From Patescibacteria group bacterium (lineage in GTDB: Bacteria; Patescibacteriota; Patescibacteriia; UBA1558; GWA2-36-10), in NCBI GenBank assembly GCA_041650755.1, contig JBAZKN010000002.1, forward strand, positions 5,030 through 69,029: a DNA stretch of 64,000 nucleotides, in the 5' to 3' direction. Each line of letters opens with the position of its first letter. Position 1 is the stretch's first letter. The notes beneath the pieces were generated by a model. That model was not told the origin of the DNA and did no database searches. It was given only the letters and a program-made list of their open reading frames with translations. Both the position numbers and the translations under genes were made by a program. Of this stretch, positions 3,373 through 60,105 are shown piece after piece.

Positions 3373-3449
3373 TGGTGCCCCCAGTAGGATTCGAACCTAC
3401 GACCGTTTGCTTAAGAGGCAACTGCTCTACCAACTGAGCTATAGGGGCA
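3373..3449 (-). tRNA. tRNA-Lys (anticodon CTT)
   Basis: Reverse complement TGCCCCTATAGCTCAGTTGGTAGAGCAGTTGCCTCTTAAGCAAACGGTCGTAGGTTCGAATCCTACTGGGGGCACCA. Anticodon loop CTCTTAA. Confidence 0.85.
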
Positions 3450-7239: not shown

Positions 7240-7304
7240 AAAGTCAGCATTTGTGTTTAAATTTTGAGGTCCCCCGGCTGTTCTTTTCATCAGGGAGGGC
7301 AGCC

Positions 7305-7475
7305 ATGCATTGGTGGCAGACTCGGCCTTTTTGGGTCACATTCTGTGTGGCCATCGGCGCGGTCATGATCTGGCGTATCCAGCATCACGTCTTTGACGTC
7401 ATCGGCGGTTTGTTTATCGCCCTTGGCATAACCATTGCCCTAATCAAGGACAAGGAAGGGAGAAGATGGAGATGA
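7305..7475 (+). CDS. Small membrane protein (56 aa), high-GC cassette C gene 1
   Basis: SD AGGGAGGG 5 nt before the ATG at 7305. Two hydrophobic segments. GC about 60%. Overlaps the next ORF by 10 nt (ATGGAGATGA). Confidence 0.5.
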   Translation: MHWWQTRPFWVTFCVAIGAVMIWRIQHHVFDVIGGLFIALGITIALIKDKEGRRWR

Positions 7476-7834
7476 ACGAAGGCGGCGCGTATCGCTACTT
7501 TTGGCCACTAATGGTCACACTGACGGGCGCGATCATTGTCCTATTCTCGGTTGGCGAGTCGAACCTCGTCTGTTTCATCGGCGCGCTGGTGGCTATCTCG
7601 GGCCTGATCTTCTTTCTGGCCAGGTCTCGCCTGTCCGCCACCCGGACCGTGATTCCAATCAACTGGTTTGCACTAGCGACAATGCTGGCGCTCTATCTCT
7701 GGACCCACGGTGGCCTGGAGGTTTCAACCGGCGATTGGCTGGTCAGCCTCTTGTTGGCTTTGGTGGGTACAGCTGTGCTCTGCTTTTTGCTATTGCTGAC
7801 CGGTTTTTGGATCGCGATCAGCCGTCGTCTATGA
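7466..7834 (+). CDS. Membrane protein (122 aa, 4 TM), cassette C gene 2
   Basis: SD AAGGAAGGGAG upstream. GC3-rich codons. Four hydrophobic helices. Confidence 0.55.
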   Translation: MEMNEGGAYRYFWPLMVTLTGAIIVLFSVGESNLVCFIGALVAISGLIFFLARSRLSATRTVIPINWFALATMLALYLWTHGGLEVSTGDWLVSLLLALVGTAVLCFLLLLTGFWIAISRRL

Positions 7835-7857
7835 TCCGAGTAGACGGAGGTGTGGAT

Positions 7858-7992
7858 ATGCTACAGGAGTTTTTGAAGCAATTGACCCAGTTGCGGTCAG
7901 TCTACATCGTGATGGCCGCGACAATCCTGCTCTTGTTCGCAATCTGGGCAGGGTGTGATTATCTGCCTCGCATTAGGGCGCGGCGACGCTAG
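7858..7992 (+). CDS. Small single-TM protein (44 aa), cassette C gene 3
   Basis: SD GGAGG 7 nt before the ATG at 7858 (MLQEFLKQLTQLRSVYIVMAATILLLFAIW...). Confidence 0.45.
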   Translation: MLQEFLKQLTQLRSVYIVMAATILLLFAIWAGCDYLPRIRARRR

Positions 7993-8039
7993 CCCCGCCC
8001 ATCCATCCCGAAGGGCAGACATGGTTCCGTGTACCTGAC

Positions 8040-8072
8040 CCGTCGAGCCGAGCTCGACGGTTTTTTATTTTT
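8040..8072 (+). terminator. Intrinsic terminator ending cassette C
   Basis: ccgtcgagc cga gctcgacgg followed by ttttttattttt. Confidence 0.8.
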
Positions 8073-8108
8073 AATCAAGACACCTTTTTAAATTTAGTCA
8101 TGATTAAT

Positions 8109-8796: not shown

Positions 8797-8877
8797 AATA
8801 CGTCGTATAGTCAGGAAACTTTGCCAGTGGCTACAAGTGTTCGTTCTGGCCATGTACACACGAGACAAGGAGGCACC

Positions 8878-9210
8878 ATGAAGAAGAAGTCTGCTTTGCT
8901 TGCCATGACCACGGATCACCCCGAATGGGGCAAGTTCATGGCCCGCCTGCATGGTCCAAGGGGGTGCAATGCTCGTCAGAAGAAGGGCGTGGGGACCATC
9001 TACACCTGTGGGCATGAGTCTGATCGTCCTCGCATCAGGGCAATTCTCCAGGAGATGGGGGATGTCGATATCCCTCATACGATGGGGTGCTTCACGAAGC
9101 GGGGCCTCATGTGCGACTGCGCGGTCGCCCGCAGCGGCATCGCGCCCGCGCCGAAGCGGGTGCTGCCAGAGCAGCGTTCGTGGTGGGAGATCATGATGTC
9201 GCGACCGTAG
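8878..9210 (+). CDS. Cys/His-rich small protein (110 aa), cassette D gene 1
   Basis: Perfect SD caAGGAGGcacc before the ATG at 8878. Strong GC3 periodicity. Motifs GCNAR..., CGHESD, HTMGC, LMCDC suggest metal binding. Terminator-like hairpin downstream. Confidence 0.6.
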   Translation: MKKKSALLAMTTDHPEWGKFMARLHGPRGCNARQKKGVGTIYTCGHESDRPRIRAILQEMGDVDIPHTMGCFTKRGLMCDCAVARSGIAPAPKRVLPEQRSWWEIMMSRP

Positions 9211-9527
9211 GCTTGCCTTTAGCCGTCCACTGGGACCCTTCGAGGGTTCTGTGGGCGGTGTTTTTTTATTTTTCAATTATTTTTTTCTTGCCACCTTTTT
9301 ACCCTTCAACTCCCCCTCGACTTGGTTCGACTACGCTCACCACAAGTCGCTCGGGGTCAGACAACACGGTTTTTTAACGTGGCTAGTCGCTGCCAAATTT
9401 TAAGTTTTTCTAAGGGCGGGGTCGTTTGATTTATTTTTTAATCAAATTTTCTAAGTATAATTATTATAGAAAACATCCTGAGAGGGGGCGGGGATGCGTC
9501 GGGTGCATCCCCGAGAAGACTGGTGAT

Positions 9528-9713
9528 TCAGTACTTGCGATAAGGGTGCTCAGGCCCAGGGCCGCCGTGCTTGATCGGCTCGCCGTTCATTGGCCAGCGG
9601 CATCGTGGGCACTTGCGGAATGGAGGAGGATTGTTCACATCCTCGTGGCTGGTGTCGGTGTATAGACATCCAACGTTAGAGCACGCCCAAGTGTAATTTG
9701 GCGGAGGGAACAT
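9528..9713 (-). CDS. Zinc-ribbon-like mini-protein (61 aa), cassette D gene 2, convergent with gene 1
   Basis: SD aAAGGAGaaagacc before the ATG. CxxxxC ... CPRC spacing. An 8-bp perfect hairpin GGGGATGC/GCATCCCC lies just past the stop. Confidence 0.55.
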   Translation of the reverse strand: MFPPPNYTWACSNVGCLYTDTSHEDVNNPPPFRKCPRCRWPMNGEPIKHGGPGPEHPYRKY

Positions 9714-9865
9714 GGTCTTTCTCCTTTGGGGGATGTGGTTCTTTGGCCTCTTCTCAAGATGTTTTAAAGAGCGAGATTATGTAATTAATTTTATTTATTT
9801 TGTAATATAAATGGGAAATGTATTTCACTACACTAAACCCCTACCTTTTTGGCAGGGGTTTATAA

Positions 9866-16052: not shown

Positions 16053-16095
16053 ATAGGCAATTATACCATATTTTTTTGTGTTTAGGGGGCGTGTA

Positions 16096-16124
16096 TTGAC
16101 AATTTTATTATATTTTGCTATAAT
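16096..16124 (+). promoter_or_regulatory. Perfect-consensus sigma70 promoter TTGACA-N17-TATAAT preceding cassette E
   Basis: ttgaca attttattatattttgc tataat. A roughly 120-nt leader follows, with a hairpin (cagtc...ggcctttgtgaaacaggcc...gactg), then the SD AAAGGAGG. Confidence 0.55.
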
Positions 16125-16248
16125 ATTTTGATACAGTCAAAAGTTGGCCTTTGTGAAACAGGCCCTAGACTGTTACTTTGAACCTTCAATTATTCTCCCA
16201 AGTACTATGCTATAACAAAACGCCTAACGGCAGGCAAAAGGAGGCCTC

Positions 16249-16968
16249 ATGGACAAAGCGTTGTTGGAACAGGTGGCCGGGCGACTAGACGAGAAAGTCG
16301 CCGTGGCCCAACTACTGGTGGTGCACATGCTCGCTTCTGACCCTCCTTCATCCGAGGTTGATATGCTGGCCATTCACGGACTCTCGGCCGGCATGTACCA
16401 GAGCGGGAATCTCCTGGAGTGCGCTGCCGAGCTCTGGCGTTCAGGGCTTGCCAGCCACATGGCAGTGGTCGGCGGTGACGGCAGTCCGACGGGCCAGTCG
16501 GCTCCGGGAGCATCCTGGGTCGGGTCCAGCTTTCTGATCGAAGAGCTGGCCAAGCGCGAAGTCCCCCAAGACCAGATCATCGTGATGGATCCCATCACCC
16601 ACACCAAGGAGGAGGCTTACGCCATCGTCCGGGCGGCCATGAAGCACGGGTACCGGAGCGTGATGAGCGTAACGGTGCCTTACCATGGCCCCAGAGTGCT
16701 CTCCTGCCTGGTCGCGGTGATGAAAGAGTTGGGCTACTGGATCGAGTGGCACATGATGGTGCCGCCCAAGGTCAACTGGACCCTGGAGATGGTCGCTTCC
16801 CAGGGCAAGGGCACGACCAACTCCCTGTTCGCGGCCATGGACGATGCCGCCAAGGTCCAGAAGTACGTGGACAACAGTTTCGGTGCTTCCTACCCGGAGG
16901 TGATCTACTACCTGCTCAATCGTGCTCGGATCGTCGAGCACCAGCAGTGGGATTTCCCTGGGGCGTAA
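16249..16968 (+). CDS. DUF218 (YdcF/ElyC/SanA)-like protein, high-GC cassette E
   Basis: SD aAAGGAGGcctc ATG. GC about 62%. Motifs VVGGDGS, THTKEEAYAI and TVPYHGPRV align with the DUF218 GG, NTxENA and TSxxHMxRA boxes. Confidence 0.5.
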   Translation: MDKALLEQVAGRLDEKVAVAQLLVVHMLASDPPSSEVDMLAIHGLSAGMYQSGNLLECAAELWRSGLASHMAVVGGDGSPTGQSAPGASWVGSSFLIEELAKREVPQDQIIVMDPITHTKEEAYAIVRAAMKHGYRSVMSVTVPYHGPRVLSCLVAVMKELGYWIEWHMMVPPKVNWTLEMVASQGKGTTNSLFAAMDDAAKVQKYVDNSFGASYPEVIYYLLNRARIVEHQQWDFPGA

Positions 16969-17070
16969 CCCAGCAGATGAGCATAGAGCCGGCCGCGTCG
17001 TCGTTTATCAAGCGATGGCGCGGCTTTTATTTTTATATGAGTAATACCATTTTTTTAGGGTCTATGATAG

Positions 17071-17136
17071 AATTTACCCTGTTAAATAACTCCGCTTAGC
17101 GGAGTTGCCGCGCGGCGGCATTTAACAGGGTAAATT
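17071..17136 (+). repeat. Structured 66-bp element, copy 1
   Basis: 17-bp perfect outer inverted repeat aatttaccctGTTAAAT / ATTTAACagggtaaatt enclosing hairpins aactccgc-ttag-gcggagtt and gccgc-gcg-gcggc. Ends 21 nt before the DUF2207 ATG. Confidence 0.7.
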
Positions 17137-22248: not shown

Positions 22249-22253
22249 TTTAT

Positions 22254-23516
22254 TTAACAGGGCAAATTAATTATTTTTTTAGGTGCCAAGCGTATGCTTT
22301 TTTCCAAGCTCGCCATATCTACTCTGACTGGCGACCCTTTGCGTAAATAGTCAACTATATCAGGCAGCTTAGTCATCAGATATTCTAGATCTTTTTTGGT
22401 GGTGTATTTACCCAAAGTAAAGCGTAGTGAGCCGTGGGCGGCTTCATAAGGCCTGCCCAAAGCGCGGATGACGTGGGATGGCTCTAGGGTAGTAGAGGTA
22501 CAGGCCGAGCCAGTAGATGCCTGAACGCCAACTTCATCTAAGTACAATAACAAGGCTTCACCTTCTATGTCCAGTATAGAAATATTTATATTGTTGGGCA
22601 GCCTTTTTTCTGCGTGGCCGTTGAGTATAGTTTTGGGGATTTTTTTGAGGATAGATTTTATCAGCCAATCTCGTAAAATAATTAAGCGTCGATTTTCTTT
22701 TTCTCTATTTTTTTGAGCTAATTTTAAAGCTGCGGCCAGGCCGATGATGCCAGGTACATTTTCTGTTCCTGAACGCAGATTTTTTTCTTGACCGCCACCA
22801 TCTATCAGCGGCGCTAAAGGTGTGCCGCGTCGCGCATAGAGCAAACCAACTCCTTTGGGACCATAGATTTTACTGCCGTTAATGGTCAGCAAATCAACGT
22901 GCATTTTTTGGACATCAAGCGGCAGGGCTCCGGCTGCTTGGCAAGCATCAGTGTGAAAATAAATCTTATTGAGCCCGCTTTTTTGTCTAGCCATATTGAC
23001 CCTAGTAAGATTAGCGCCAATTTTTTGGATGGGTTGGAGCGTGCCAATCTCATTGTTGGCAGTCATGATGCTCACCAGCATTGTATTTGGCCTAATAGCT
23101 CGATTGAGCAGCGGCTCCATGATAATGCCGTCATCGTCAACTGGTACAATGGATACGGTGAAGCCCTGTTTGGCCAGATGTTCGGCTGTATGCAGGACAG
23201 CATGATGCTCGATGGCTGAAATTATCAGGTGCGGTTTATTTTTTTCTGTCAAAAAATTATAAGTCAAGCCCTTGATAGCCAGAGCAATGCTTTCAGTACC
23301 GCCGCTGGTAAAGATTATTTCTTCAGCTTGGCAATTTAGAATTTGAGCAAGATCAGTCCGAGCATTTTCAACAGCTTGTTTAGCCATTAAACCAAGAGAG
23401 TAGAGGCTGGATGGATTGCCAAATTTATCCGACCAATATGGCGCCATAGCCCGAAGCACGACCGGGTCGACGGGAGTGGTGGCCGCGTAGTCCAAATAAA
23501 TATTTTTTCTAGGCAT
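22254..23516 (-). CDS. Cysteine desulfurase (NifS/IscS class V aminotransferase)
   Basis: HTDACQAAG, PLP-lysine region INGSKIYGPKG. 420 aa. Confidence 0.85.
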   Translation of the reverse strand: MPRKNIYLDYAATTPVDPVVLRAMAPYWSDKFGNPSSLYSLGLMAKQAVENARTDLAQILNCQAEEIIFTSGGTESIALAIKGLTYNFLTEKNKPHLIISAIEHHAVLHTAEHLAKQGFTVSIVPVDDDGIIMEPLLNRAIRPNTMLVSIMTANNEIGTLQPIQKIGANLTRVNMARQKSGLNKIYFHTDACQAAGALPLDVQKMHVDLLTINGSKIYGPKGVGLLYARRGTPLAPLIDGGGQEKNLRSGTENVPGIIGLAAALKLAQKNREKENRRLIILRDWLIKSILKKIPKTILNGHAEKRLPNNINISILDIEGEALLLYLDEVGVQASTGSACTSTTLEPSHVIRALGRPYEAAHGSLRFTLGKYTTKKDLEYLMTKLPDIVDYLRKGSPVRVDMASLEKSIRLAPKKIINLPC

Positions 23517-23853: not shown

Positions 23854-23924
23854 ATAATGTTAAGTCGTACATAGACAACTATTCTGTAGCTTTTCTTGGC
23901 CTTTTGGCCAGAAGGGAGACCATA

Positions 23925-24959
23925 ATGAGCGGGACAGTTCGTCTAGTCAAGAAAATCGTGACTCATGTCAAGCCCCATCTGGATGAGCTGGTGGCCATTT
24001 GGCTGCTCGTCCGGTGGGGGGAGAAACACTTCCCCGGCATCAACACTGTGCCAGTAGAGGTCTGGCGCAAGGGGTTGGAGTCCGCCGACGGCCGCTCCTT
24101 TGAGGAGCATGAGGACGAAGGCACGATGTTCATCGGGATTGGCGGCGGCCAGTTCGATGAGCACCCGACCAACGGCACTGACGATCTGTCTGGTGAGTGC
24201 GCGGCCACTCTGGTCGCCAAGCGTCTGGGCATCCAAGACGACCCGGCTCTCGAAAGGATTCTGGACTTCGTTCGTCGGATTGACACCAAAGGTGGCGCCA
24301 ATCCTTGGGACATCTCGGCTGTCGTTAAGGCGGCCAACGAAGTCGGCAAAGGTCTGCCGGAGCTGCTCACCTGGGTGTTCTTGGCGCTTGATGCCAAGTA
24401 TGAACAGCAGGTCAAGTTCCTCGAGGCAGAGGCCGATGCCAACATCGCCCAATGGGATACGGTCGGCTCTGTGCGGGTAGCTACCGCAGAATCTGACAAC
24501 CAGCAGGTCTACAAGGTGCTTTTCACTAGGGGTGCGGCGGTGGCGATTGTTCGCCGGCGTCAGGATGGCCGAGTGGCCATCTTCACGCAGAAGCGTGACA
24601 ACATCAGGCTCACTGACGCTGTCAGGATCATCCGCCGCTTGGAGCAGAAGGCTCGCGGCGATGTCAGGACTACCAACTGGAAGGAGCTGGCAGCGCCTGG
24701 TTCCATCGACGCTGTGGCGCGCTGGTACTATCTTAAGGAGGGTGAAATGCTGCTGAACGGCAGCGATACCCACCCCGATACGCCGGCTACCGGTCTGTCC
24801 CTTTCCACCATCCGTCAGGCGGTCATCTTGGCCCTTTCTGGCGAGATGATCTGCTCGCAGGCCAATGTCTGCGACGGGAAGTCCTGCAAGTGGTATCAGC
24901 TCGGCCTGAGCCGGTGCCAGACAATTCGCTACAGAATGTCGAGTGGCCAATCGCAGTAG
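23925..24959 (+). CDS. MYG1/UPF0160-like metal-dependent hydrolase, high-GC cassette G
   Basis: N-terminal KKIVTHVKPHLDELVAIWLL fits the MYG1 T-H-x-x-x-H-x-D-E signature. GC about 60%. SD present. Terminator downstream. Confidence 0.45.
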   Translation: MSGTVRLVKKIVTHVKPHLDELVAIWLLVRWGEKHFPGINTVPVEVWRKGLESADGRSFEEHEDEGTMFIGIGGGQFDEHPTNGTDDLSGECAATLVAKRLGIQDDPALERILDFVRRIDTKGGANPWDISAVVKAANEVGKGLPELLTWVFLALDAKYEQQVKFLEAEADANIAQWDTVGSVRVATAESDNQQVYKVLFTRGAAVAIVRRRQDGRVAIFTQKRDNIRLTDAVRIIRRLEQKARGDVRTTNWKELAAPGSIDAVARWYYLKEGEMLLNGSDTHPDTPATGLSLSTIRQAVILALSGEMICSQANVCDGKSCKWYQLGLSRCQTIRYRMSSGQSQ

Positions 24960-24983
24960 GTCGCACTACTGATTGGGCACACG

Positions 24984-25030
24984 AAGAGCTCGGAGCGGCG
25001 TCAGCCGACACCCCGAGCTCTTTTCTTTTT
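24984..25030 (+). terminator. Intrinsic terminator ending cassette G
   Basis: aagagctcgg ... ccgagctctt ttctttttat (10-bp stem). Confidence 0.75.
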
Positions 25031-25087
25031 ATAAATTTTTTACAAAAGCGTATTCGAAACCAGCAAAGCAACCTGAGCTAAGATAAA

Positions 25088-33970: not shown

Positions 33971-34048
33971 GGTGGCAGTAGCTCAGTTGGTTAGAGCATC
34001 GGGTTGTGGTCCCGGCGGTCGTGGGTTCGAGACCCATCTGCCACCCCA
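33971..34048 (+). tRNA. tRNA-His (anticodon GTG) with encoded G-1 and CCA
   Basis: G-GTGGCAGTAGCTCAGTTGGTTAGAGCATCGGGTTGTGGTCCCGGCGGTCGTGGGTTCGAGACCCATCTGCCAC-C-CCA. Confidence 0.85.
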
Positions 34049-34086
34049 TCGAAGATCCTGAGCGAACGTAGTGAGTCGAAGGATCA
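34043..34086 (+). repeat. 44-bp direct repeat, left copy (overlaps the last 6 nt of tRNA-His); attL-like
   Basis: accccatcgaagatcctgagcgaacgtagtgagtcgaaggatca, identical to 35761-35804. Each copy is followed by a similar hairpin plus T-run. Confidence 0.85.
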
Positions 34087-34350
34087 AAAAACACCCAATT
34101 TTCTTTGAGTGTTTTTTGTTCGTTATAATTTGACTAAATATATAATAATTGCTATAGTATCTTGTTGTTTTTCATATATTTCGTAGTCTGCTTTTTGTTT
34201 ATTTATATGAGTAAAAAGCAGGCTAAGAAAACGCTTAGTCTTTGTTCCGTTAAATAATTTTTTGTGTACGAAGGGGGGTGAACCAGACCGTTGTTCTGTC
34301 GGCAATCTCGTGTGCTAGGGTTCTGGATTCATTCAAGGAGGTATGGGAGG

Positions 34351-35613
34351 ATGTCGACCATGCTGCAATCCCAGGTCATCGAAAGGCTTCTGAAGTACGC
34401 GCGGGTCAACACCCGTTCGCTTCAGGCCATGCCGGGCGAGGAGCTCCCTCACCCAAGCAGTCCGGAGCAGGTGGTCTTGATCGACCTGTTGCTCTCCGAG
34501 CTGTCCGACATGGGGGTGCCGTCCAACTGGACCAGGAAGCTCGAAGACGCTTCGTTCCTGATCGAGATCCCCGCGACCGAGGGCCACGAGAACGCCCCGC
34601 ACGTCGTTCTGGCTGCGCACGTGGACACCTACTTCGGCTGTCCCGGCGGGGCCAACCCGATCATCCACGAGTACCAGGGCGGCGACATCGCGCTCCCGAA
34701 CGACAACGTGGTCATCCCGGCCTCGGACCTTGCCGGTCTCGAGGGCAAGGGGATCATCACCGCTGACGGCACCACGCTGCTCGGTGGCGACGACAAGTGC
34801 GGAGTCGCGGCCATCATGACCTTCATCGAGAGCATGCTGGCTCACAATCTGCCGCACGGTCCGCTGACCATCTGGATCTGTACCGACGAGGAGGTCGGCG
34901 AGGTCGGCGTGAAGTTCCTGCCTTCGGGCACGGCGGAGAAGTGGGACTTCTTCTGGACCGTGGACGGGGAGCGTCTCGAAGTCGTGGACATTGGCTGTTT
35001 CTACGGCTCCTCGGTCGACGTCGAGTTCATCGGCAACGATTCCCATCCGGGTGTCTCCGGCCACTCGCTCAAGCCCGCCCACTACGCCGCCTGTCGCTTC
35101 GTGGATCAGCTCGGCCTGGCGCCGACGCCCTGGCGGACCAGCGGCGAGGAGTCGTTCATCTACGTGCCCTCTCTGCCCGCCTGCACGGCCGGCAAGTCGA
35201 CGATCAAGGTCTTCCCGCGTACCTTCCGCCAGGAAGAGATCCCTGAGATGCGGGAGACGATCCGGCTCGTGGCCGAGGAGGCGGCTTCGCACTACGGCGT
35301 CCAGGCCGTGGTCAGTGAGGCCAAGATCCTCTACGTCTCCACCGAGGTCGCGATCGACCAGAACCGCCACCTGTTGCAGCCGGGTCTGGACGCGATCCGG
35401 AAGTTCTGGGTCGAGCCCAAGCTGCATCGCGTGCGCGCTGGCACCGACGGCGCCATGCTGAACATGACGTACCCGAAGATCCCGTCGCCGAACATGGGAG
35501 CCGGGGCCCGCAACTTGCACGGCGTTCGCGAGTTCGTCGTGCGGGAAGAGCTCCAGCTCGTCCCGGAGATCATCTCCGAGATGATCGGAATCTACGCGAC
35601 CATGTCGCGCTGA
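34351..35613 (+). CDS. M20-family peptidase (peptidase T/PepT-like tripeptidase), high-GC cassette H cargo
   Basis: HVDT, GGDDKCGVAAIM, TDEEVGE, GTDGA and NLHGVREF motifs of M20B. GC about 62%. SD AAGGAGG 9 nt before the ATG at 34351. Confidence 0.75.
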   Translation: MSTMLQSQVIERLLKYARVNTRSLQAMPGEELPHPSSPEQVVLIDLLLSELSDMGVPSNWTRKLEDASFLIEIPATEGHENAPHVVLAAHVDTYFGCPGGANPIIHEYQGGDIALPNDNVVIPASDLAGLEGKGIITADGTTLLGGDDKCGVAAIMTFIESMLAHNLPHGPLTIWICTDEEVGEVGVKFLPSGTAEKWDFFWTVDGERLEVVDIGCFYGSSVDVEFIGNDSHPGVSGHSLKPAHYAACRFVDQLGLAPTPWRTSGEESFIYVPSLPACTAGKSTIKVFPRTFRQEEIPEMRETIRLVAEEAASHYGVQAVVSEAKILYVSTEVAIDQNRHLLQPGLDAIRKFWVEPKLHRVRAGTDGAMLNMTYPKIPSPNMGAGARNLHGVREFVVREELQLVPEIISEMIGIYATMSR

Positions 35614-35760
35614 TCCGCCATCGTGAGAGGTTCGCAACCCAAACTGCCGTCTCAACAATCCTTGCAGGTGAGAGATGGCGTTTTCATTTATTTAAAATTG
35701 TAGATAGGGTATATGATAAGTATTTGAAATTAGTATAGTCCCGATACGTTTTACGACGCG

Positions 35761-35804
35761 ACCCCATCGAAGATCCTGAGCGAACGTAGTGAGTCGAAGG
35801 ATCA
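35761..35804 (+). repeat. 44-bp direct repeat, right copy; attR-like
   Basis: Perfect match to 34043-34086. Followed by tcaccc..gggtgg ttttttg terminator-like hairpin. Confidence 0.85.
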
Positions 35805-35868
35805 CAAAATCACCCTGAGCGTAGTCGAATGGGTGGTTTTTTGATATAATGGAGAAAATAAATTCACC

Positions 35869-37836: not shown

Positions 37837-38949
37837 TTATTTATTGTGTCCTTTACCATTGCCAGATGATTGTTTTGGCATAGCTTGTTTTAAGTTGCCA
37901 TTGAACTTAGCCATTTTTTGTTGTAGTCTATTTTTTAGAATATGGATTGGGTTGCGATCATTTTCACGATTTTTTTCACACCAATCATCGCACTTGCATT
38001 CACATTGGCATCTTTGATTGTTGTTTCTACCCAACGTGGTTACTGAAATAATACTAGAGTTTGGGGAGACATTGCCAGCCGCATCATAGGCTTTGACAAA
38101 GTAAGAGTAGGTGGTAGATGCAGTTAGACGGATGTCGTTATAATGGGGATTTTTAACTTGAGCAATTTGGATTCCATCTCTAAATACTTTATAGCCAACC
38201 ACAGCTAGATCATCGGTTGAAGTTGACCATTTTAGATTGACGTGCTGGAAAGAGACCACATGGGCGACTAAATTAGTTGGTGCATTAGGTATAGTCGTGT
38301 CAGTGGGGTTTGCCAAGGTTATAGCCGAGACAGTATTGGAGGCAGTTGATATGTTGCCAGCCGCATCATAGGTTTTTACAAAAAAGCTATAGGTAGTAGA
38401 AGCAGTTAGACCAGTGTTATTGAAAGTAGTATCGGTTGATGTGGCAATTTGTATATTATTTCTAAATATTTTATAGCCAGCTACTCCAATATTATCAGTA
38501 GCAGCGGTCCAGCTCAAATTTATTTGGGAAGAAGACACTGTGTTGGCGACTAGGTTAGTTGGCGCACTGGGCACAGTCAAATCAACGGGCATAGCCAGAG
38601 TCGTAGTTGATACTGGATTAGAAAAATCCGATTTATTACCAGCCACATCATAGGCCTTAATAGCATAGGTATAAGTAGTAGAGGCTGTCAGTCCCAAGTC
38701 GTTGAATGTGGTGGTAGCTACATTGGCGACTCCAAGACCATTTCTAAATATACTATAACCAGCTACTCCAATATTATCAGTAGCAGCGGTCCAGTTCAAA
38801 TTTATTTGGGAGTTTGAAACTGCAGTGGCCGCTAAATTAGTTGGTATAGATGGAGGAGTGGTGTCATCCACAGCTAGAGCGGACTTGATAAGTGTCAAAG
38901 AGGAGTAGGCAGCTACGAGTACGCCCAAGATTAAAAGTATTTTTTTCAT
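37837..38949 (-). CDS. Secreted protein with four fibronectin type III-like repeats and a C-terminal Cys/charged tail
   Basis: Four repeats of about 90 aa (PTNLxAxxVSxxQINLxWTAATDNIGVAGYxIFRNG). Signal peptide. Tail QRCQCECKCDDWCEKNREND. Confidence 0.7.
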   Translation of the reverse strand: MKKILLILGVLVAAYSSLTLIKSALAVDDTTPPSIPTNLAATAVSNSQINLNWTAATDNIGVAGYSIFRNGLGVANVATTTFNDLGLTASTTYTYAIKAYDVAGNKSDFSNPVSTTTLAMPVDLTVPSAPTNLVANTVSSSQINLSWTAATDNIGVAGYKIFRNNIQIATSTDTTFNNTGLTASTTYSFFVKTYDAAGNISTASNTVSAITLANPTDTTIPNAPTNLVAHVVSFQHVNLKWSTSTDDLAVVGYKVFRDGIQIAQVKNPHYNDIRLTASTTYSYFVKAYDAAGNVSPNSSIISVTTLGRNNNQRCQCECKCDDWCEKNRENDRNPIHILKNRLQQKMAKFNGNLKQAMPKQSSGNGKGHNK

Positions 38950-59226: not shown

Positions 59227-59292
59227 AATTTACCTTGTTAAATAGTTCCGCAAGGCGGAACTGCCGCTTTGTGGCATTTAACAGAGTAAATT
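59227..59292 (+). repeat. Structured 66-bp element, copy 2
   Basis: aatttaccttGTTAAAT ag ttccgc-aag-gcggaa ct gccgc-ttt-gtggc ATTTAACagagtaaatt. Same architecture as copy 1, with compensatory changes in the inner stems. Confidence 0.7.
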
Positions 59293-59388
59293 TTATCATA
59301 AAACGACACAAAAAGAAAAACTCGCCGCGTGAGTCCACCTGATGGTGGCGCAGCGAGCTTGAGGGAGAGGGGGGGGTGGGCGGGGTGC

Positions 59389-59868
59389 TTATGTCGAAGG
59401 AGGGTCGACAGCCCTGGTAAGGAAGATGAGGTTTCCCATTCGCCCGTTAAGTCGAGCGATTACAGAGATCGAGACGTCGCGCAGGCAATAGCCCTGGTCG
59501 AGCTTGTGCAGCATGAAATCGTCGATGCGGCCATAGACGCTGGTCGGCAGGATGGTCGTGTTGCCCCTAGTGACCACTGTGTCATCCGGGCTGTAGCAAT
59601 CACCAGTGATGTTGTAGCTGATTTCAATCAGGCCAACTCGCGTCTTGATCTGCTCTTGGTGTGCGTTGCAGTAGTTGACTGTGGCATTCAGACCTTGGTC
59701 GTAGTAGACCATCAAGGCCGCATTCATCATCTGCGCGGCGGAATCTTGGATGGCGGCGATCTCGTCTTTGTTGGGTCCGGTGTGGTGGGCGATTGCGATG
59801 ATGATCACAACCAAGAGTAGTAGGGAGGCAATCGCTGCCGACATATTGTTTCGGTTCATGGGAGTCAC
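59389..59868 (-). CDS. Secreted/membrane-anchored Cys-containing protein (159 aa), high-GC cassette J
   Basis: SD gAAAGGTGactcc ATG. Signal/anchor AAIASLLLLVVIIIAIAHH. Five Cys. GC about 58%. Terminator hairpin after the stop (about 59330-59385). Confidence 0.55.
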   Translation of the reverse strand: MTPMNRNNMSAAIASLLLLVVIIIAIAHHTGPNKDEIAAIQDSAAQMMNAALMVYYDQGLNATVNYCNAHQEQIKTRVGLIEISYNITGDCYSPDDTVVTRGNTTILPTSVYGRIDDFMLHKLDQGYCLRDVSISVIARLNGRMGNLIFLTRAVDPPST

Positions 59869-59939
59869 CTTTCAAATGAATGAACATTACCCCACATTCC
59901 CTGGGGCAGGGGTTTATGGCTATTTGCCAACAACTTTAT

Positions 59940-59968
59940 ATAATAACATATATTTAATTATTTGTCAA
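59940..59968 (-). promoter_or_regulatory. Near-consensus sigma70 promoter TTGACA-N17-TATTAT driving cassette J
   Basis: Minus strand: ttgaca aataattaaatatatgt tattat. A roughly 70-nt leader with the hairpin cccctgcccc/gggg follows. Confidence 0.5.
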
Positions 59969-60105
59969 TAATGTTAAAAAAAATTGACTTTTTACCTGCA
60001 AAATGTTAGTCTATGATTACTTTTAATCATAGAACCCTATGCTTGGTTTGGCCCGACTTAGCTAACTTGAGGTCAGGCTCGGCTTTTGGGAGAAAGGTAA
60101 ATATT

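Follow-up and report, generated by a model that had tools for sequence, protein, structure and literature searches.

What is the short palindrome that occurs twice in this window, and is it a site at which a neighbouring recombinase captures foreign genes? The window is the whole stretch of DNA analysed, 64,000 nucleotides from a Patescibacteria group bacterium. An earlier note had described two copies of a folded element, compared its outer boxes with integron attC and Xer sites, and placed each copy at the border of a high-GC cassette. The finding is more general than was visible from the window; its structural reading is right, but the attC, Xer and cassette reading is not supported.

Both copies were present as described, at 17071-17136 and 59227-59292, as a direct repeat of 67 nt with 81% identity. 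They are solitary and lie 42 kb apart. In each copy, inverted arms of 17 nt enclose one hairpin of 19 nt and one of 13 nt, with zero unpaired bases at the junction. The elements and their parts, none of which is assigned to a strand, are as follows.

17071-17136, no strand: copy 1, whole element, 66 bp, defined by repeat, fold and covariance model (81.2 bits)
17071-17087, no strand: left arm of copy 1, AATTTACCCTGTTAAAT
17088-17106, no strand: long inner hairpin (P2) of copy 1, AACTCCGC-TTA-GCGGAGTT
17107-17119, no strand: short inner hairpin (P3) of copy 1, GCCGC-GCG-GCGGC
17120-17136, no strand: right arm of copy 1, ATTTAACAGGGTAAATT
59227-59292, no strand: copy 2, whole element, 66 bp, defined by repeat, fold and covariance model (68.9 bits), with an orthologous copy in the related locus L327
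59227-59243, no strand: left arm of copy 2, AATTTACCTTGTTAAAT
59244-59262, no strand: long inner hairpin of copy 2, AGTTCCGC-AAG-GCGGAACT
59263-59275, no strand: short inner hairpin of copy 2, GCCGC-TTT-GTGGC, with one G.T pair
59276-59292, no strand: right arm of copy 2, ATTTAACAGAGTAAATT

The 17-nt outer inverted repeat that had been claimed for both copies was perfect in copy 1, but copy 2 departed from perfect pairing by a single C.A mismatch and a single T.G pair. The inner stems kept their pairing in spite of sequence change, as had been proposed: P2 is AACTCCGC/GCGGAGTT in copy 1 and AGTTCCGC/GCGGAACT in copy 2, which represents two double compensatory changes, and P3 of copy 2 stayed paired with one G.T pair. 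The pattern GTTAAAT-N20-45-ATTTAAC matched twice in the window, against 0.02 matches expected by pattern count. An unfiltered covariance-model search of the whole window returned exactly two copies, at 81 and 69 bits, and the next best hit scored 10 bits. When both strands of both copies were folded, a three-way junction (Y shape) was obtained every time. The free energies of the two strands with RNA parameters were -40.6 and -39.5 kcal/mol for copy 1 and -30.1 and -27.3 kcal/mol for copy 2 (z from -5.5 to -8.8), and those with DNA parameters were -28.9 and -28.8 kcal/mol for copy 1 and -19.2 and -18.4 kcal/mol for copy 2 (z from -6.0 to -9.9). In both copies, the energies of the two strands were thus almost equal.

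The element is not confined to two copies, a rarity that the earlier note had named as an argument against its own reading. When genomes representing one species each were scanned with the pattern TACCYTGTTAAAT-N26-40-ATTTAACA, at least 120 loci across phyla matched, and the number of chance matches in the whole genome collection was estimated by us, from base composition, at about 10-60. Two inner hairpins were present in the fold of 88 of the 114 unique matches, and no unpaired junction base was found in 73 of the 85 matches that could be divided into two hairpins, which argues that the matches were not due to chance. Carriers among the listed matches included many classes of Patescibacteria, Omnitrophota, Desulfobacterota and WOR-3, together with single genomes labelled Cloacimonadota, Verrucomicrobiota, Bdellovibrionales and others, and one single-cell genome (L223). 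The layout of the family was TTYACCCTGTTAAAT, two hairpins and ATTTAACAGGGTRAA. The inverted arms measured 12-17 bp, were nearly fixed in sequence, with the outermost bases less conserved than the inner part, and directly abutted two inner palindromes in which sequence was free and pairing was kept. The distance between the arms ranged from 13 to about 125 bp overall, and was 26-40 bp in the scan pattern.

The sample was shaped by the pattern used. Decayed copies were left out because intact arms were demanded, and TACC was required in one arm while the partner arm was mostly TTCACCC, which pairs perfectly with GGGTGAA; the family therefore exceeds the present sample, and its real arm consensus is probably TTCACCCTGTTAAAT / ATTTAACAGGGTGAA. 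The polarity of the arms (TTTACCC versus GGGTGAA) was considered as a signal and dropped, since the apparent T.G wobble was a product of the TACC-requiring pattern, and no claim is made from it; polarity was distributed 29 versus 37 relative to gene direction and 33 versus 42 relative to GC skew. Four WOR-3 loci (L145, L172, L175, L187) showed the conserved arms around an AT-rich, unstructured interior, a variant without inner hairpins, and in three of them (L145, L172, L175) a sequence like ATCTGCG was present on both sides. Viral contigs gave only chance matches with the loose pattern (L001-L120), 0 matches with the strict pattern, and one contig with the symmetric pattern (L329 of IMG/VR, with a terminase-like ORF), in which the element lies at 889-934. 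Plasmids gave nothing beyond chance matches. At gathering scores, Rfam 15 reported 4 tRNAs only in the window and no match to the element, and with five family loci at E<=1 it gave nothing credible on the element. Searches of the openly searchable literature by sequence and by topic found the arm sequence in no relevant context. The family is apparently undescribed so far.

Maintenance of the structure by compensatory change, which had been proposed from the two window copies, holds far beyond them. The 133 distinct family sequences were aligned to a covariance model built from 39 of them, and stem positions were paired in 98.4% of cells, compared with 75.8% in shuffles and 34-48% with slid partners; this alignment was fitted to the structure and hence favours pairing, and the slid controls and a MAFFT-only alignment agreed with it in direction. 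All 13 pairs of P2 and P3 covaried, each showing all four Watson-Crick types among the 133 sequences, and cells with a double change numbered 711, against 198 in shuffles. The 12 pairs of the outer stem were almost invariant (99.2% paired across the family), and compensatory changes in this stem were found in copies detected by the model only, for example CCCCG...CGGGG in L164 and L193. Palindromes can also stay perfect through template-switch repair, for which no selection is needed.

Either a folded single-strand DNA or a structured RNA had been suggested to underlie this pairing, and of the two the DNA fits better, while RNA is disfavoured by the rarity of G-U pairs, the symmetry of the strands and the random orientation. 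G-U pairs made up about 2% of the inner-stem cells of the 133 sequences, the same as mismatches, and in the 73 copies between co-directional genes they amounted to 3.4% on the sense strand and on the antisense strand alike. In these 73 copies, the more stable strand was the sense strand in 36 and the antisense strand in 33. Relative to transcription, the two possible orders of the long and the short hairpin occurred 30 and 23 times, and the loops were mostly of 3 nt, with GAA/TTC and AAA/TTT equal on either strand. A palindrome that is perfect on both strands points to DNA folding, or to upkeep of the palindrome at the DNA level, and not to RNA. As judged from sequence, the results favour a DNA palindrome rather than an RNA. 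A cis-acting RNA structure in polycistronic transcripts, serving as an exonuclease barrier or an RNase III-type processing site and independent of orientation owing to the palindrome, was nevertheless weighed. Among the 92 classifiable copies, 74 were found between co-directional genes, at a median of about 55 nt from each, and copies in such spacers must be co-transcribed; three copies are present within one ribosomal-protein operon (L197) and another in an rRNA spacer (L147), and the fold is very stable, all of which would suit an RNA role. REP, ERIC and Correia palindromic repeats are known to have RNA side effects of this kind. The same copies inside essential operons imply that the element is not an efficient terminator, and a terminator scan of the window called neither copy. 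An RNA role is improbable in our judgement because G-U pairs are tolerated no better than mismatches, the sense strand is not favoured and the orientation is unbiased, the loops are of 3 nt where stable RNA hairpins typically have 4-nt loops, the fixed sequence of the arms is left unexplained, and neither Rfam nor the terminator scan recognised the element.

Integron attC sites read 5'-RYYYAAC...GTTRRRY-3' on either strand and rely on extrahelical bases and an unpaired central spacer (PMC5027507). The matches to GTTRRRY and RYYYAAC seen by the earlier note are real, but the order of the boxes is reversed on both strands, and extrahelical bases and a central spacer are lacking from the fully paired outer stem. 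The element and attC share short conserved end boxes, a variable middle and a structure conserved over sequence, and folded single-strand DNA is a plausible active form of both; unlike attC, the element is solitary and not arrayed, and it has no integron integrase and no general link to cassettes. In dif, a centre of 6 nt lies between two 11-nt arms, which are best conserved in their inner part (PMC2731167). The likeness to the XerD arm was retained for the outer part, as TGTTAAAT is identical to the outer 8 nt of the proteobacterial XerD arm (8/11 nt), but the strongly conserved inner TTA reads CCC in the element. As in dif/Xer systems, including difSL-xerS modules, one copy lies beside an XerA-like recombinase gene in two related genomes. 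In contrast to dif, the element lacks a central region of 6-8 bp, its arms face outward and are 26-40 bp apart, and it occurs many times per genome, up to three times within 8 kb, while dif is one site per replicon near the terminus.

The two window loci were compared with their relatives. Copy 1 is located 21 nt from the ATG of DUF2207, as had been stated. The gap before it, which had been described as GC-rich non-coding DNA, is 102 nt long and consists of the terminator of the high-GC gene followed by the AT-rich native promoter of DUF2207, of which the following putative part was recognised by sequence.

17065-17073, plus strand: extended -10-like element of DUF2207, TGATAGAAT, conserved in relatives without the element

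The left arm of copy 1 begins inside TGATAGAAT. Upstream, an insert of about 960 bp between CYTH and DUF2207 carries a perfect promoter, a DUF218 gene and a terminator, and about 28 bp of the native spacer are imperfectly duplicated at its two borders (16060-16085 and 17035-17060); copy 1 lies about 30 bp past the right junction of this insert. In the syntenic relatives L324 and L326, with DUF2207 proteins of 62% and 57% identity, the gap between CYTH and DUF2207 is 65 bp, and both the element and the high-GC DUF218 gene are absent from the site. A family member is present elsewhere in the assembly of L326 (L198).

Copy 2 lies 1 nt from the ATG start codon of the single tyrosine-recombinase homologue that the window contains, which agrees with the position reported before. 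This recombinase is XerA/XerC/XerD-like, scored under every curated cut-off, and reached 28.5 bits on the integron-integrase model, for which the cut-off is 265. The candidate promoter part of its gene is the following.

59290-59298, minus strand: extended -10-like element of the recombinase gene, TGATAAAAT, within the block TTATCATAAAACGACAC, which is conserved in L327 and L328

Copy 2 begins inside TGATAAAAT. In L327, in which PNPase is 81% identical, the element is found at the orthologous spot, 3 nt from the start codon of the recombinase and directly left of TTATCATAAAACGACAC, so that copy 2 is conserved in a relative, the absence of which had been held to speak against the proposal. The long hairpin of L327 carries a compensatory change from T-A to C-G, and its two hairpins stand in swapped order. 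In L328 (75% identity), two unrelated hairpins occupy the place of the element. Different high-GC small ORFs lie between the recombinase promoter block and rpsO in the three genomes (window 59294-59990, L327 6800-7290, L328 3270-3900), and a minus-strand TTGACA-N17 promoter is present just upstream of these ORFs in the window and L327, with the -35 block also in L328; the interval between the recombinase and rpsO is a local hot spot of gene gain beside an XerA-like recombinase. The recombinase locus was arranged alike, high-GC ORF included, in the Logan assembly of SRR8542065, which is independent of ENA ERZ27247363, whose 236-kb Patescibacteria contig includes the window, and this agreement indicates that the mosaic of base composition at this locus is not an assembly artefact.

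These comparisons bear on the proposal that the element is an attC- or attI-like folded site used by the adjacent tyrosine recombinase for the capture of high-GC cassettes. Besides the literal box matches, the abutment of copy 2 and its L327 orthologue on the start of a conserved XerA-like gene, with different DNA beyond it in three related genomes, and the lack of both cassette and element at the DUF2207 site of relatives would agree with it. However, the copies do not border the cassettes as had been claimed, since a conserved native promoter segment lies between each window copy and the high-GC DNA; L328 has a cassette without the element; and, from the relatives compared at both loci, the element and the high-GC genes come and go independently. 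A copy is present at only 2 of about 10 high-GC islands of the window, and cassette arrays are lacking. In the wider family, the expected recombinase link was not observed near 131 other copies (1609 ORFs within 4 kb, 120 other loci listed), no element was found around distant recombinase homologues in 80 loci (423 kb), and GC-anomalous borders showed no excess over random positions in 88 loci. Together with the reversed boxes and the lack of extrahelical bases and of the unpaired spacer expected of attC (PMC5027507), these results largely refute cassette capture as a general model, and we consider it very improbable as an explanation of the element. A lineage-specific link between element and recombinase may still exist at this one locus.

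Other features of acquired or duplicated DNA were observed in the window. Genes of 54-64% GC within the 43% GC genome lie at 16086-17040, 1301-2151, 7251-8101, 8801-9751 and 23901-25051. Consensus-type AT-rich promoters are present on the high-GC genes at 16086-17040, 23901-25051 and 59389-59868, and the first of these genes comes with a terminator of its own. A segment of 1.7 kb (33972-35809) has 62-64% GC, carries a peptidase M20-like ORF and lies between 52-nt direct repeats (34040-34091 and 35758-35809) of 96% identity, the first of which overlaps the 3' end of tRNA-His (33972-34048); the segment contains no integrase and resembles an integration targeted to the tRNA. The sequence at 2873-2956 is 89% identical to the nearby tRNA-Lys gene (3373-3448), was called by neither tRNA tool, and is possibly an attachment site that has been duplicated. 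A 282-nt unit is repeated in tandem at 38031-38844, in three copies of 61-85% identity.

The family behaves as a repeat. Identity of the inner part had a median of 0.88 within genomes and 0.53 between genomes (P 2e-20), up to three copies were found per 8 kb, and tandem, nested and clustered copies exist. The copies occupy short spacers, mostly between co-directional housekeeping genes and in either orientation; no conserved neighbouring gene was found across the sampled loci, the neighbours being housekeeping genes, and the location relative to genes varied even within one operon of related species. Flanking direct repeats of at least 5 nt were present at 18 of 92 copies against 4.1 expected (P<0.001), and those of at least 6 nt at 8 of these copies against 1.4 expected (P<0.001). 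The clearest measured 7-8 bp, namely ATTGATTA (L141), TTGAATC (L207), ATTATTT (L146) and the 8-bp CTACAGCC (L329). As signs of insertion, these repeats are suggestive rather than decisive, since about 1 in 5 copies has one while most have none, and their offset from the arms varies by 0-6 nt; classical target-site duplications are tighter. Inspection of about 0.9 Mb around the copies revealed no transposase or autonomous parent element with the same arms, and no long autonomous element between distant arms. Orthologous retention was found for the window and L327 and for groups of Desulfobacterales.

Larger assemblies of hairpins were also seen around some copies. In Saccharibacteria (one assembly: L168, L186, L189, L196, L210, L227) and in Omnitrophota (L129, L191, L197), the element is the centre of a larger hairpin mosaic, whose hairpins flank it on both sides and are conserved at the base and variable at the tip; the mosaic of Saccharibacteria stops exactly at the next start codon. 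The inner hairpins were swapped between orthologous and paralogous copies (window 59244-59275 and L327 6751-6781; L123 and L181), and a simple inversion of the inner segment does not account for this in the window and L327, because the loop of the long hairpin reads the same on the same strand.

A single arm was found in the window as well.

22252-22268, minus strand: isolated arm, AATTTGCCCTGTTAAAT, matching the arm at 16/17 nt

This arm provides the cysteine desulfurase gene with its last two codons and its stop, so that the protein ends in ..IINLPC* (AAT TTG CCC TGT TAA) in the window and in ..IINL* (AAT TTA TAA) in orthologues. By its sequence, it is probably the remnant of a former copy that is now without its interior and other arm, which may have been lost, for example, via slippage between the TAAAT repeats of the two arms.

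We interpret the element, with a probability of about one half, as a miniature non-coding mobile DNA palindrome of the MITE or REP kind. The arms would bind a trans-acting protein, in the simplest case a transposase with a staggered cut of 7-8 bp. Being so short, the element would have to fold in order to serve as a substrate, and this need would preserve the inner palindromes; the fold could be a Y-shaped single strand, a cruciform, or a hinge that lets arms 26-40 bp apart meet. If only foldable copies leave descendants, covariation would arise without benefit to the host. Both window copies would have inserted immediately downstream of the following gene's -10 region, and the solo arm at 22252 would be the leftover of a third copy. 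Mobility is supported by the likeness of copies within a genome, the empty DUF2207 site in L324 and L326, and the excess of flanking repeats. Transposases normally need the outermost bases, yet these are the less conserved part of the arms, which counts against mobility. Arms that are near-identical across phyla are unusual for MITEs and suggest a conserved host partner, and the retention of some copies in place in different species agrees with a host function no less than with mobility.

Under a rival explanation, the element would serve a conserved host protein as a fixed DNA site, and this protein could be a nucleoid-structuring protein, a topoisomerase, a recombinase of the Xer type or a repressor. 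The arms would then be half-sites that are joined on extrusion of the palindrome, and the element would spread rarely and be kept through its use by the host. The near-invariant arms across phyla around a free inner part, the lack of strand or orientation bias and the orthologous retention (window and L327, and the Desulfobacterales groups) would all be expected of such a site. Both window copies, L198 and a few others begin at a -10-like element, but this does not hold for the family at large (adjacency to a promoter in 6 of 73 copies, Wilcoxon P 0.3). The 8/11 nt match to the XerD arm and the XerA-like recombinase by copy 2 also agree with a host site (PMC2731167), and in single-recombinase Xer systems gene and site are often linked (PMC2731167), but no recombinase lies near the 131 other copies. 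A fixed site also sits poorly with arm spacings from 13 to about 125 bp and with a position relative to genes that is not constant even in the same operon of related species, and the similarity within genomes, the empty site and the flanking repeats speak for amplification. A host site is regarded as unlikely, but it ranks next after the mobile palindrome.

Interpreted as a mobile palindrome, the family belongs among the small palindromic intergenic repeats. It resembles bacterial MITEs such as Correia/NEMIS of Neisseria, RUP of pneumococcus and ERIC of enterobacteria in being short and non-coding with foldable terminal inverted repeats, in being intergenic, co-transcribed, placed in either orientation, multi-copy and similar within a genome, and in having some copies with short flanking direct repeats and presence or absence at orthologous sites. 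It differs from them in its much shorter length (55-70 bp), in an interior made of two separately conserved palindromes that form a gap-free three-way junction and that is wholly different between lineages while the arms are constant across phyla, and in the lack of a known parent insertion sequence and the lower conservation of the outermost bases. Ends of the IS6 type (GGCACTGTTGCAAA) may offer a lead for the arms. With REP, BIME and REPIN it has in common that these are extragenic palindromes, often in clusters or hairpin mosaics, long kept at some loci and plausibly recognised as folded DNA. However, each REP sequence is restricted to one genus or species while the arms of the element are common to phyla, and REP is a single hairpin while the fold of the element is branched; no GTAG-type 5' tetranucleotide and no RAYT (Y1 HUH)-like gene was found next to any sampled copy. 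Hammerhead-type ribozymes, boxA/NusB sites, LexA boxes, parS and DNA uptake sequences were considered and dropped.

A bolder reading, which we hold to be quite doubtful, takes the invariant stem as the recognition site of a conserved enzyme acting on folded (Y-shaped or cruciform) DNA. The family would then be a new structure-dependent class of mobile or genome-organising elements, shared by Patescibacteria and cohabiting phyla and possibly exchanged between them, and at the recombinase locus the element would be the XerA-like enzyme's own site beside a hot spot of gene gain.

If the element is a mobile DNA palindrome, annotation has so far missed a very common feature of the genomes of the candidate phyla radiation and of several other phyla. 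It would be a clean natural case of selection on the folding of DNA and not of RNA, and would serve as a warning that covariation alone is no proof of an RNA gene. The family would also offer an insertion-polymorphism marker for uncultivable organisms and a handle toward the protein that recognises it. It may remodel genes too, as in this window, where one arm now supplies the stop codon of cysteine desulfurase.
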